A DNA stretch of 29,604 bases from Candidatus Micrarchaeota archaeon (GTDB lineage: Archaea > Micrarchaeota > Micrarchaeia > Micrarchaeales > CABMGC01). The first letter of the stretch is position 1, and every line of letters begins with the position of its first letter. Location of the stretch: positions 1-29,604 of the forward strand of contig DAHWQN010000001.1 of assembly GCA_027340645.1 (NCBI GenBank), given 5' to 3'. Positions 6,001 through 12,000 of the stretch are shown here, one piece after another. Position numbers: made by a program.

Positions 6001-9000
6001 CATAGAGAGTGACAGCCTCGTAACCGTAGAGAAATCGGCCACTGCTGCGAAAGAGTAGTACAGGTTAGTTATCCTGTGCGAATACGGGGGCATTAAACCC
6101 CAACCCTAAATATTGGTTAGAGACCGATAGCGAACAAGTAGCGCGAGCGAAAGCTGAAAAGCACCCACATGCGTGGGAGTGAAATGATCTGAAACTAGGT
6201 GGTTACGAGAAGATATGGCATGAAAGAAATGAAGTGCGCCAAGCGAAATGTGAGAACATGGAGCAAAACGCATGGATCAATGTCATGTCCTTCTTCTCGA
6301 AGCAAGAGCCAGGGAGTGTATGGGTGTGGCAAGGCGAAAGCCACAGTGAAAGCGAGTGCGCGCAGGCAACGAGGCGCAGAGCATGAAAATGCTTAAGTCA
6401 CCTTCATACGACCCGAAGCCATTGTGATCTACGCGCGGCCAGGACGAAGTCAGCTTTACAGCTGATGGAGGTCCGCAACCAATTCTGGTATATCCGACTG
6501 GGTGAGCTGCGGGTAGGGGCGATAGACCACTCGAACATGGCAATAGCGGGTCCCCTCCGAAGTATATTTAGTATAGCCCCGGGCGAGTTCGCACATGAGG
6601 TAGAGCGACCGATTGGGAGTCTCGGGACCGAAAGGTCCTAACTTCCTCTCAAACTCCGAATGCATGTGCTGCGTAGACCCCGGGAGTCGGTTCGCTTGGG
6701 TAAGCTAGGCGGACGAGACTGGAACGACAGTGACCTTGGTTAAGGTCCCTAAATCTTAGTTAAGTGTACCTAAAGACGGCACGGTCTTAGACAGTCGGGA
6801 GGTAGGCTCAGAAGCAGCCATCCTTCAAAAAACGCGTCATAGCGTACCGATTGAGACTATGTTATCTGAAGATAAACGGGGCTAAACTAAGTACCGAGAC
6901 CTAGGCATCGAAAGATGGGTAGGGGGGCGTGCTGCATGACTAGAAGCATGGTCGTGCGATCATGTGGATCATGCAGCAGTGAAAATCCTGGTGTTAGTAA
7001 CAGCATATAATGGTGAAAATCCATTACGCCGGAAGCACAAGGTTTTCCTTGCGATGATTGTCAGCTGGGAGTTAGCCGATCCTAAGCACACGGCCAATTA
7101 CCTGTGTGCAAAAGGGGAGCATGTTAATATTCATGCGCTTGACACGTAGGTGCGGCAACGCAAGGCGTATTTCTGACGTTTGGGGATAGGGATGCAACAA
7201 AGTGCAAGTGGCCGCGGAGTCTCATTGTGAGGAGAAGCGGCTCAATGAACTATATTCCTGAATTCCTGAGCCCGTGAAAAGGAAATACGCAACGATCGTG
7301 TTAATTCGTACCTAGAACCAGTACAGGTGCTGCTGGCCGAGAAGGCCAAGGCGTGTCGGGAGAACCAAGGTTAGGGAACTCGGCAAATTAGTGGCGTAAG
7401 TTTTCGACAAGCCATGTCTGCGCTTGGTAAGCGCAGATTGCAATAACAAGGGGACGGCGACTGTTTATCAAAAACACAACTCACCGCACAGCCGTAAGGC
7501 TTTGTACAGTGGGTGACGCCTGCTCACCGCTAGCCAGCGAACCCCCGTTTCAACGGGACTAAGCCCTAGCAAAGAGCGGGAGTAACTCTGACTCTCTTTA
7601 GGTAGCGTAATACCTCGTCACTTAATAGGTGACTTGCTTGAAGGGCGTAACGTCTGTCCCACTGTCCCAACTTTGGACCCGGTGAACTCACTACGTGGTG
7701 TACATGCCACGTTCTCTCAGTGGGTAGCGAAGTCTCCATGAAACTTGACTATAGCCTGTTGCTGTTGTGTGAGGGGTGATTCATAGCGTAAGTGGGAGCA
7801 TCGAAGTGCTCGCTTCGGCGGGCATGGAGCGACAATGTAACACCACTATTCGCTTCTTACGCAACTTACCGCATTGCGGGACAACTGCAGGTGGATAGTT
7901 AGACTGGGCGGTTGCTTTCGATAAGGAAACGAAAGTGGCCAATGCTCTGCTTAGGCGGGTTGGGAACCCGCCGTTAAGCATAAAGGCAAATGCAGGGCTG
8001 ACTGTACTCCGAAAAGCGTGGAGTGCAGACTGGAAACAGGGGCTTAACGAACTCTGGATGGCCTTTTAATGGGCCACCATGCTGTCAGAAAAGTTACTCT
8101 GGAGGTAACCGGTTCGTGGCGGGTGAGCGTTCACAGCGACCCCGCCGTTTGATACACCGATTTGGTCTTATCTTATCCTGGTGGTGCAGGAGCCACCAAG
8201 GGTTGGACTGCTCGTCCATTAAAAAGATACACGAGATGAGTTCAGTACGACGCGAGTCAGTACGGTAGCAACTACTGAGAGTGTTAGTGTCAGAGGATAA
8301 GTCGTCCTTAATACGAGAGGAACGGGACGACGGCGCCTCTAGTGGACCGGTTGTCATTATGGCACTGCCGGGTAGCCACGCGCTAAGCGGATAAATCCTG
8401 AAAGCATCTAAGGATGAAGCCGCATCCGAAACGAGACACTTAGGGTGGTCATAGTACATGACTTTGATAGAGCGGGCGTGTAAACAGGGAGCTTCGGCGA
8501 CCTGTGAGCGTACCGTTACTAAATCCTAATATTTTTTCAAGCTTGCTTCTCTTTCTTGTTTTTTTTGTTTTTGAATTGGTTAGCTGAAGCTTTGCGTAAG
8601 AGATAAGTATTTATACTTATTCTACTTATATCATGAGTGGGTGTTAAGTATGACGAACATGACTCTGGCAATACCTGAGGACCTTATGCTGATAATGAAG
8701 AGGCACAAGGAGATAAGATGGAGTGAAGTAGCGAGAGAGGCAATCTGGGACAAGGCCAGGAAACTTGAGATAATGGATAGTATTCTCTCGAAGAGCAAGC
8801 TCACAGAGGCAGACGCAATAGAGATAGGCAGGAAAATCAAGGAGGGAATTGCGAAGCGTCATGGGATAGAATGATTGTCGTCGTTGACACGAATATCATA
8901 ATTGCCGCACTTGTCAGGAACAGCAAGACAAGAAAGGCCTTGATTTCAGGAAAAATCAAGTTCGTGTCACCGGATTTTGTCAAGGAGGAGCTGCAAACGC

Positions 9001-12000
9001 ATGAAAGCAGCATAGTAAGCAAGTCAGGATTATCTAGAGAAGAATTCAGCCTGATTCTGGCGCTGCTCCTTGAAGAGATAGAAATAATTCCATATAAAGA
9101 ATACAAGGACAAGATTCCGGTTGCAAAGAGGATAATGAGCGATGATCCCAAGGATGTCGCATACGTCGCTTGCTATCGCGCGCTTGGCTGCGATGCGGTG
9201 TGGACAAACGATAAGGATTATTACGGCAAACAAGGCATAAGCACGCTTGACACGAAGCGCATTTTGAGTCTTTTAAACCTGTGAGCGTACCGTTACTAAA
9301 TCCTAATATTTTTTCAAGCTTGCTTCTCTTTCTTGTTTTTTTTTTGTTTTTGAATTGGTTAGCGTAGACTATGCATTTTTGCTATTTGAATTCTTATGCT
9401 GGAAGACTCAATAATGTTTAAATATGTGTTTAAACATATGTTTAACTGTGGAAATATGACAAAAACGATAACGATAAGGACAGAGGTATATGAGAAACTT
9501 ATTAGGATAAAGAAGGAGAACGAGAGCTTCAGTGAGCTATTCGAGCGCCTGGCGGAAATACTTGTGCCGATAGACGCATTGCTTAAGCTTAGGGGCAGCA
9601 TGGAATTCAACAACAAGGACAAAATGCTTGATGAGATTCTTTCGAAGAGATCAGAGGTAAGGCAGTGATAATTGTAGATACTGATGTTTTGATAGAGATA
9701 TTCGACAAAAATTCCGAGAGCGGACAAGTCGCACTAGATGCCATAGTAGGTAGCATGGAGCCTTTTTGCACTACCTCAATAAACCGACATGAACTTTTAT
9801 ACGGTGTCATGAAATACAACAAAAAGGTTCCTGAAGAGCTATCGGCAATACCTATATTAGATTATACGAAATGCGATGCTGAACTCTCTCCGCAGTTGGA
9901 ACTTGCACTAGAGAGAAAAGGGAAGAAGATCGCAAGAATGGATGCCATGATAGCTGCCGTCGCAATAAATAACAAGGCCAAGTTTTACACAAACAACAAA
10001 AAGCATTTCATGGAGTTTAAGGAGTTTGGGCTTGAACTGTTTTAGACGCGCGTTCAGTTTTTAGCGTAGCTCGACTAAATTCCAGATATTGTCAAGCTTG
10101 CTTCGCTTTCTTGTTTTTTGTTCGAAGGAAAATATTAAAGCATTATACGCTGATTTATTCGTATGAAAACAGTGGGCATAATAGGCGGTCTTGGACCTGA
10201 GACGACATCGGAGTTTTACCTAGATGTGATATTCTCGTGTATGAAAAGGGACAAGAGCCAAAGGCCAGGAGTCATAATCTCTAGCGTGCCGTTGCCATAT
10301 GCCGTTGAGGAGGACCTTATTCTTAGAAACAAGGGCGCCGATAGATATATTCCGTTCCTAATTAGTGAGTCGAGGCGCTTGGAAAAGGCGGGCGCAGATT
10401 TCATAGTCATGCCGTGCAATTCTCTTCACGTGTTCATAGAAGAAATAAGGAAATCCGTAAAAGTTCCAGTACTGAGCATTGTAGAGGAAACAGTAAAGTT
10501 CCTAAAGAAAAATGAGTTCAAAAGGGTCGGTATTGTATCGACATCAGCAACAATAAGGAACAAGTTGTACGAAAACGCACTCAAGGAAAACGGCATAGCT
10601 TATGAGACCCCGGATGGTCTTCAACAGGAAAAGATGGGGAAGTATATACTAAACCTCGTAAATGGCCAACAAAACAATAGGGACAGGGAAGGGCTCATAA
10701 ACATCATAAATGGTTTTGATGATAAAGGAGTTGACTGCGTGGTTCTCGCCTGCACAGACCTGCAGCTCCTAATACCGAAGCATTCGAGTCTGAGGATCTT
10801 CGACACAATGAAGATACTCGCTGATGCGACCGTGGAAGAGATACTCAGGTAACGTCACGACAGCGCTGCGGCCGCGCCGCCGGTTGCAAGCATTAGTGAT
10901 AGTATTCCGCCGATTATTGCTATTATTCCGAGCGCTGCGGTTATGTAGAGTATTCTTGATTTCTTCGCCTCGTTAAGAAGGAACGTTATCAGGAACAGGC
11001 TTATAGTAGTGGCTACTACTATTGAAATTATGAGCCCCGGTACCGTTATAATAGATATAGCATGGGCGATCTGATGCCTGCTCGCTACAAGAGTGAGAAC
11101 TACAGCACCGCTTGTAGCAAGTATCATGTCTATGAATGACAATCTGAACGCATCTCCTGCATCTACGTTGAGCAGTAGAAGCGTGCTTGTAGTTGCACCT
11201 GACCTGCTAACACCCGGAAGCGCTGCAAGCGCCTGTGCAAAGCCGACAAGTATGTACTCTTTTATCCCAAGATTCTGAAGCGTTCGCCTGTCCTTGTTCA
11301 CGGCATACTTGGACCTCGCTATCTTTATTAGTATAGCATCGAGTATCAGCACTCCGCCGAGTATAAGCATGGGTATGCCAAGGTTGTAAGCTCCGTTGAG
11401 AGAGTCAACGACGAGATACAAAGGTGCGCCTACCAATCCCGTGACTATTGTTGATATTATAACATAATTGAATAGGTTCTTGTCAGCAGGATTGCCTCGC
11501 TTGAAAAGGTACTTAAAAAGATTCACAACATCCTTCCTGAAGTAGATAAGCGCTGCAAGTATTGTGCCTATTTCCATGAACAGGCCGAAGGCGTACACTA
11601 ACGAGAAGTTGCTTGCTATGTTTAAGTTTAGGTTGAGTAAATACGAAGAGGCGATCATTATCTGCGTCTTGCTGCTTATCGGAAGCCACTCGCTTATGCC
11701 CTGCACTATTCCCAAAGCTGCGCCGTTGAAGTTTAGATACAGTGCGATTGCAATTATGATAACTGCAATTATTCCTGCCAAAACATATCGCAGAAGTTTT
11801 TTCCTTTCCATTAGCAACACTGAAGTATTATACGGAGAAGTTGCCTGTACAAGTATATATTACTTACTGCGCATTCCTGACAAGCAATTGGATGACTTAT
11901 GGCAATGGAAGCTGTATAGTGATGCGCAGCCACAAAAGATCCAGAATTGGGTCTTTACTTATGTAGAAAACGTATGCGCACACTTATAAAAGCACGAGTG

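Follow-up and report, generated by a model that had tools for sequence, protein, structure and literature searches.

Toxin-antitoxin cassettes in tandem between copies of the 23S rRNA gene tail in Micrarchaeota

The first 29,604 nucleotides of contig DAHWQN010000001.1 of a Candidatus Micrarchaeota archaeon (GenBank assembly GCA_027340645.1), hereafter referred to as the window, raise the question of why the 3' end of a 23S rRNA gene should recur twice behind the gene itself, with a complete toxin-antitoxin (TA) pair lodged between each two successive copies. The analysis of these repeats, their cargo and the equivalent region in related genomes points to a real, evolving tandem array that was probably formed by accretion at an attachment (att)-like site in the 23S tail, as happens at tRNA genes, with the older, distal tails decaying. 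A preliminary description of the same DNA had given the layout as 23S-R1-RHH/PIN-R2-VapB/VapC-R3-racemase, with R1 and R2 as an 85/87-nt direct repeat and R3 as a degenerate copy, and this was confirmed together with the coordinates. The features that make up the array are as follows.

5664-5699, forward strand: 5' arm of the pre-23S processing stem (inverted repeats; 23-bp duplex in a co-fold)
5684-8540, forward strand: archaeal 23S rRNA gene, full length (Rfam RF02540, 2285 bits, model positions 1-2987)
8500-8584, forward strand: R1, the working 23S tail, i.e., the last ~28 nt of 23S, the 3' processing arm, a T-run terminator and a GGTTAGC motif
8650-8874, forward strand: antitoxin of cassette 1, RHH_12, 74 amino acids (precomputed Pfam match PF26688 on the identical product)
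8871-9284, forward strand: toxin of cassette 1, PIN_2, 137 amino acids (PF10130, E 1.4e-27; from the list of open reading frames)
9277-9363, forward strand: R2, a displaced copy of the tail without the 5' half of the last 23S hairpin
9418-9445, unstranded: operator of cassette 2, a perfect palindrome (inverted repeat; conserved in the alignment with the congeners G010 and G007)
9396-9668 (or from 9456), forward strand: antitoxin of cassette 2, VapB, family VAPB_antitox (PF02697, E 3.8e-13, match from residue 23)
9665-10045, forward strand: toxin of cassette 2, VapC, a PIN protein of 126 amino acids (PF01850, E 2.4e-12)
10063-10122, forward strand: R3, a decayed copy of the tail (81% over 58 nt, E 7.5e-9)

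The content of the repeat matches exactly what a functional 23S end needs, namely the tail, the processing arm and the terminator. Its left edge in R1 falls on the 3' strand of the final 23S hairpin, ~28 nt inside the mature rRNA, and from there the order runs through the 23S tail, the 3' processing arm and the oligo-T terminator to the GGTTAGC motif as its end. The 3' arm inside R1 (8516-8551) pairs over 23 bp with 5664-5699, and this one 5' arm is all that the 3' arms of R1 and R2 and, in part, that of R3 have to pair with. R1 and R2 share 98% identity (E 6e-37), the sole difference being two extra T residues in the T-run of R2, and R3 retains the processing-arm core TCAAGCTTGCTTC and the T-run, with the aligned match reaching 10119 in a copy that ends at 10122. 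These three are the only tail copies detected in the genome bin (646 kb, 60% complete), and no 16S gene is linked to the 23S gene in the window. Direct repeats of the 3' part of 23S lie on both sides of the inserts and the 23S gene itself is intact, a pattern by which site-specific integrative elements at RNA genes are recognized.

The unique intervals between the repeats, 692 nt and 699 nt in length, hold one complete TA pair each, with antitoxins of different families (RHH_12 versus VAPB_antitox), as had been described. In cassette 1 an AT-rich operator/promoter (~8597-8635), which is conserved in homologues at other loci, lies upstream of the antitoxin; the start of the toxin overlaps the antitoxin stop, and the toxin has its own TGA stop (9282-9284) 8 nt inside R2. 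In cassette 2 the VapB start is probably the ATG at 9456 rather than the one at 9396, because the operator falls within the longer open reading frame, and the VapC toxin has orthologues in G007 and G010 at 84-85% amino-acid identity. Judged from sequence, both cassettes fit the layout of type II, VapBC-type TA systems, with a predicted DNA-binding antitoxin, a 4-nt overlap, a downstream PIN toxin and an operator.

Like all genomes considered here, the genome of the window (G000) is a metagenome bin and a species representative. It is fragmented into 113 contigs, and repeats of this size can mis-join short-read graphs; R2 might on these grounds be a chimera joining strain variants with different genes behind 23S, a concern that had been voiced in the preliminary description. 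This is exceedingly improbable. MEGAHIT k141 contigs from three other samples show the colinear order from 23S through R1, cassette 1, R2, cassette 2 and R3 to the racemase at 99.0-99.9% identity (window 5600-11000), and Logan unitigs from three acid-mine-drainage runs cross the junctions from the unique end of cassette 1 into R2 and from R2 into cassette 2 at an even depth of ~7x. Further, R2 carries its two additional T residues relative to R1, and the same architecture is found in bins of other studies and lineages. Because the k-mer length exceeds that of the repeat, the order recurs in three samples and the unitigs bridge the junctions, an assembly chimera is excluded.

If the array is real, the next question is whether it changes, and comparison with three congeners indicates that it does. 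In G010, the order is 23S, R, an inverted cassette here called X (an AbrB-like antitoxin and a PIN toxin), R, the orthologue of cassette 2, and then BacA, the chromosomal gene that flanks the array; the racemase is absent and R3 is not recognizable. In G007, it is 23S, R, a 7.8-kb island, R', cassette 2, R'' and a truncated X. In G008, cassette 2 adjoins BacA and is preceded by different sequence until the contig end. Cassette 2 is common to the congeners (83-93% DNA identity), the proximal position holds three different inserts among G000, G010 and G007, and X lies on opposite sides of cassette 2 in G010 versus G007. Additionally, a repeat and the cassette to its right stay linked: G010 and G007 have orthologous 3' parts in the repeat that precedes cassette 2, and in each of them X comes after a repeat.

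The repeats of the congeners are themselves mosaic. The first 65 nt of the two G010 copies are 100% identical and the remainder only ~70%, and the G007 copies show the reverse, with the last 32 nt identical and the 23S-derived part ~20% diverged. The diverged G007 copy carries a CACAAC variant as in the tail of G010 and not the CGTTAC of G007 itself. One duplication followed by uniform drift cannot yield this pattern, which therefore reflects crossover or gene conversion within the repeat.

The 7.8-kb island of G007 (L027, G007:C11, 4413-11754) is bounded by tail copies and encodes a GNAT acetyltransferase, three radical-S-adenosylmethionine/SPASM enzymes and an arginase-family protein, with an AbiEi/AbiEii pair at its distal end. 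The enzymes possibly constitute a cluster for the modification of a peptide or small molecule.

To place these arrays in a wider frame, ~12 kb downstream of 23S were fetched from 43 relatives, and the 23S 3' end was used to scan the phylum and, within it, the 248 genomes of the order, of which 170 have a 23S end; every genome that showed a second tail was followed up. Tail-bounded cassettes were recovered in 12 species from seven genera and two families, all in one order of Micrarchaeota; none was seen outside this order in the phylum scan, where the 23S query matches poorly. Besides G000, G007 and G010 the cases are the following.

G102: three tail copies, with MNT/HEPN followed by AbiEi/AbiEii
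G097: a PIN cassette, a tail copy and a further PIN cassette
G132: a PIN pair
G035: two PIN pairs with a 20-nt tail copy between them
G086: a pair without recognized identity
G052 (second family): a 114-nt repeat at 98% identity, with AbiEii and a partner
G245 and G241 (second family): AbiE-type cassettes
G243 (second family): three tail copies, with up to 127 nt of 23S, and an AAA_14/DUF4143 ATPase followed by an AbiE-type pair

The repeats in these arrays are 60-187 nt long and match the tail of their own host, including species-specific bases. Four genomes (G000, G007, G102 and G243) have three tail copies each, with the units in tandem and without recombination genes, and in every one of them the distal copies are more decayed than the proximal ones: identity to R1 falls from 98% (R2) to 81% (R3) in G000, from 93% to 84% in G102, and similarly in G007. 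In two genera, five or six junctions that involve unrelated cassettes have the start of the distal repeat in one 6-nt span of the 23S sequence (G000, G010, twice in G102, and G097). X and the AbiE-type cassettes of G102, G052, G243, G245 and G241 have the opposite orientation to 23S. The 135 open reading frames of the first 2.6 kb downstream of 23S include nine PIN, three AbiEii and two VapB domains, as compared with PIN in at most one of the 90 open reading frames in a control region 5.5-8.1 kb downstream; this enrichment in TA genes is only indicative, because one of the nine PIN matches comes from a locus that was fetched for having repeats.

A few candidates from the scan were set aside. 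The second 23S matches in G069 and G223, considered as distant att copies, are separate rRNA genes or contig ends, and a downstream repeat in G042 is part of duplicated pilin-like genes rather than a tail copy. In the latter (L073, G042:C3), the first 2.3 kb behind 23S hold two tandem paralogues of 276 and 294 amino acids with pilin-like N-termini and an upstream 32-nt repeat, i.e., a local duplication. Among the cassettes counted above, the tail-bounded ATPase cassette of G243 (L096, G243:C8, 360-1664) is not a TA pair, and consists of a single 434-amino-acid AAA_14/DUF4143 ATPase.

The relatives do not share one fixed set of two TA pairs, and G010, G007, G102, G052 and G243, among others, depart from the window in what they carry. 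Since related species differ in how many cassettes they have, in which ones and in what order, the central idea of the preliminary description, that the 23S tail is a site of repeated TA acquisition, survives, and the recurrent tail-bounded cassettes of variable content uphold it; its label 'integron-like' does not stand. The integron reading was judged against intI, attC structure and promoterless, unidirectional cassettes, and the arrays have none of the three. When folded as single-stranded DNA the repeat reaches only -0.7 to -1.0 kcal/mol, and on either strand it folds less well than its shuffled versions (z +1.3 to +1.4); this reading is rejected because the repeat has no attC-like fold. 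Further, the cassettes have their own palindromic operators, occur in both orientations, and have no integrase beside any array. What is shared with integrons is the arrangement of small cassettes of ~0.5-1 kb in arrays, the TA cargo that is common in integrons, and the apparent entry of new cassettes at the proximal end; the 23S arrays differ in having no nearby intI, a repeat that is a copy of the host rRNA tail and not a hairpin attC, and cassettes with operators of their own in both orientations. A report on archaeal integrons (bioRxiv 10.1101/2022.02.06.479319) mentions neither Micrarchaeota nor rRNA.

How, then, could such an array have arisen? In the accretion that we consider probable, the 3' end of the single 23S rRNA gene of Micrarchaeota would be the attachment site. 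An incoming unit, i.e., a TA pair or occasionally a larger island, would bear a tail copy in which 20-130 nt from the 23S 3' end are followed by the 3' processing arm and the terminator, and would recombine within the resident tail, perhaps as a circle, such that 23S retains an adjacent, working tail. The former tail would be shifted downstream of the new cassette and would then decay because it is no longer needed. Repetition would generate the order 23S-R-cassette-R-cassette-R, in which the repeats are older the farther they lie from 23S, a direction of growth that is suggested by the decay alone. The cassettes carry no mobility gene, and the enzyme would be supplied from elsewhere; the cassettes themselves are probably retained because loss of a TA pair harms the cell. 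Within the accretion model, there is a slight lean to a tyrosine recombinase acting in trans (nearly an even chance), by likeness to the integrase-less elements stacked at tRNA genes; homologous recombination comes next as a sizeable possibility, and some other reaction would account for a minor share. A site-specific reaction with a trans-acting enzyme is favoured by the rebuilding of the 23S end by the repeat, the decay of distal copies, the linkage of each repeat to the cassette on its right and the 6-nt span of the junctions.

Other features favour homologous recombination through the tail, and it is quite possible, if not what we would expect first, that it acts on its own. After a first duplication of the tail, a RadA-mediated crossover between direct tail copies would loop out circles of cassette plus tail (Campbell-type) without any site-specific enzyme, and such circles, or linear fragments from conspecifics, would then return through a single or unequal crossover with any of the tail copies. 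The repeats are long and follow the host tail down to its species-specific bases, the mosaic blocks of identity are those of gene conversion or crossover inside the repeat, and no recombinase lies near any array. A precedent exists in the translocatable units of Campylobacter, in which pcp- or tetO-mediated circles, shown by inverse PCR, are formed and re-inserted by homologous recombination via repeated host genes (PMC10770853). These resemble the 23S arrays in being recombinase-free cassettes between direct repeats of host sequence, whose circles may re-enter at any homologous site, and are unlike them in that circles were observed there and none at 23S, where the repeat is an rRNA tail and the arrays are polarized. 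Pure homologous recombination leaves unexplained how each new, unrelated cassette first gained its tail copy and why different cassettes in two genera should share the same 6-nt junction span; nor were circles or deletions seen in the runs, which were available as contigs. Both processes may operate together, e.g., in a site-specific birth of units followed by homologous shuffling.

A search for the putative enzyme bears on this and on a further alternative. As the preliminary description had stated, the window has no integrase or tyrosine recombinase gene, and the three PF00589 matches of G000 lie on other contigs. The PF00589 matches in G007, G010, G102, G052 and G243 are likewise all on contigs other than that of the array, and the family is absent from the cassettes and from the 7.8-kb island. 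No further, attP-like tail copy was found free in G000, G007 or G010, and the tail motif was not found in IMG/VR viral contigs. A metagenome scan with the repeat core gave a single match, which is unrelated and due to chance.

The further alternative is that each cassette is what remains of a larger element, a plasmid or virus whose own integrase inserted it at the 23S tail, with deletions having spared only the addictive TA pair and the att copies, such that nothing is mobile any longer. The 7.8-kb island with its AbiE pair at the distal edge, the truncation of one cassette in G007 and the fixation of arrays within the species of the window are compatible with such a fossil. Additionally, TA pairs are expected to resist deletion on account of post-segregational killing. 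We nevertheless hold this to be unlikely, as no integrase-bearing element was encountered at the site in ~50 downstream regions, in the 170 23S ends of the order that were scanned for second tails, or among the viral contigs, none of which carries the tail motif. Moreover, many cassettes independently have their edges no more than 15-45 nt away from promoter and stop, a neatness that would be unusual for random deletion, and the order of X and cassette 2 differs between G010 and G007.

Accretion at the 23S tail has to be weighed against several observations that count against it. The array is identical across all strains sampled at at least 99% identity, and every place of occurrence of identical cassette proteins shows the same array. 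The cassette circle and the empty 23S-R-racemase allele anticipated in the preliminary description were not found: four runs yielded no circle, excision joint or empty site, as contigs in which rare forms are hidden, and 47 relatives yielded no such allele. The boundaries of the repeats vary by lineage, from 8 to ~120 nt of 23S upstream of an ACTAA motif near the 23S end, and to the left of the distal copies no conserved half-site on the element side can be seen. None of the 12 arrays has a recombinase gene within it or as a neighbour, the 7.8-kb island included; in G000 and G007 no integrase has a tail copy next to it; and the homologues of the cassettes away from 23S (11 loci) have no adjoining tail copy. 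Finally, the 12 cases represent fewer than 12 independent events, because species representatives share ancestry.

Is accretion of this kind known elsewhere? Mobile DNA classically inserts at structural RNA genes, and the ones known to serve in this way in prokaryotes are tRNA and tmRNA (transfer-messenger RNA) genes. Integrase-less, att-flanked tandem units at the 3' ends of conserved genes are also familiar, as cis-mobilizable elements (CIMEs) beside the integrative and conjugative elements of streptococci, as composite or pseudo staphylococcal cassette chromosome (SCC) elements at rlmH/orfX, and as stacked tRNA islands. The 23S arrays resemble CIME- and SCC-type accretion in that units are bounded by repeats of the 3' end of the target gene, the target stays intact, the units have no recombinase of their own, stacking is head-to-tail, and old att copies decay. 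They are unlike it in that the target is an rRNA gene, the repeat includes a processing arm and terminator, the units go down to 0.7 kb with only a TA pair, the hosts are DPANN archaea, and no cognate integrase-bearing element was seen. Archaeal and bacterial viruses, plasmids and islands enter tRNA and tmRNA genes by means of tyrosine integrases (Williams 2002, Nucleic Acids Research 30:866, cited in PMC12302457). Here the likeness lies in the duplication of the 3' part of an RNA gene, the restoration of the gene, and a left repeat edge inside it; the difference lies in an rRNA gene as the target, an insert without integrase, and repeats that extend into the processing and terminator region.

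Full-text searches of the published literature returned no paper in which the 23S tail serves as an attachment site or in which TA arrays lie behind rRNA genes, be it in Micrarchaeota or in other archaea. The general type, with att-bounded units in tandem at the end of a conserved gene (3' side), is known; the novelty lies in the target, in what the repeat is composed of, in units reduced to a TA pair alone and in the group of hosts. The repeat has its unusual make-up because any insertion must rebuild the rRNA processing stem and the terminator. The arrays present an rRNA gene end as a probable landing pad for mobile gene cassettes in tiny archaea of acid mines. With one TA pair and a copy of the target tail, the units are near the minimum size of mobile DNA, and their clean boundaries are comparable across many species, which makes them a natural system for the long-standing question of how TA modules move discretely without a recombinase of their own. 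They also bear on gene flux in DPANN archaea, here in hosts with very small genomes and a single 23S gene, and the 23S tail could be used as a simple marker for variable, horizontally acquired genes in fragmented DPANN bins. A more far-reaching proposal, which we advance tentatively and with some doubt, is that Micrarchaeota possess a dedicated cassette-capture system that is integron-like in function and differently built: a trans-acting recombinase would recognize a core in the last 23S hairpin, and defence or addiction cassettes with a replacement tail would be inserted, shuffled and exchanged at this single site, such that the 23S end would be the main store of mobile TA and defence modules in the genome.

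The distal side of the array in the window is occupied by two further genes.

10163-10852, forward strand: Asp/Glu racemase (PF01177)
10855-11820, reverse strand: BacA/UppP, the conserved chromosomal flank of the array (PF02673; same flank in G010 and G008)

This species alone has the racemase between R3 and BacA, and the gene was not found at that position in G010 and G008 (synteny tblastn and alignment). The stretch that it fills measures ~0.73 kb, near the size of a cassette, and ends 2 nt from BacA without a tail copy behind it; it may be an older insertion that lost its distal repeat. A different context for cassette 1 is hinted at by run X4, a sediment metagenome of a different study. 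One of its unitigs matches 151 nt of the cassette 1 antitoxin without any difference (window 8597-8772), and another parts from the window precisely on the upstream side of 8597, at 13 nt beyond R1. Pieces of cassette 2 are present in this run and pieces of the racemase/BacA flank are not, and its cassette 1 may sit elsewhere than in the array described here.

Some smaller features recur at the edges of the repeats. A motif (G)GGTTAGCTGAGGCT, 3' of the T-run, forms the right edge of the repeat copies in three congeners (window 8577-8591; G010:C4:1584-1598 and 2390-2404; G007:C11:98312-98326 and 106158-106172). It is unchanged in distal copies whose 23S-derived part has decayed, and in these genomes it is essentially confined to repeat copies; related TAGC..GAG motifs are present at the equivalent position in other genera. 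The motif may be part of an outer processing helix, a recombination core or a regulatory site; a remnant of 5S rRNA was considered and rejected, as Rfam detects no 5S in the window and the motif is restricted to the repeats. A 9-nt direct repeat, TTAGCGTAG, lies on both sides of cassette 2 (window 9359-9367 and 10061-10069) and is similar to GTGAGCGTA at the left edge of the repeat (8504-8512); as a general core site it was discarded, since no equivalent pair of motifs is found in other lineages, and it may be due to chance. Lastly, several genera (L092, from G102; L035, from G002; L044, from G035) have a short perfect hairpin, e.g., TTGAAACCTTTGG...AAGGTTTCA, between the 23S end and the processing arm, and hairpins of this type are duplicated together with the tail repeat.

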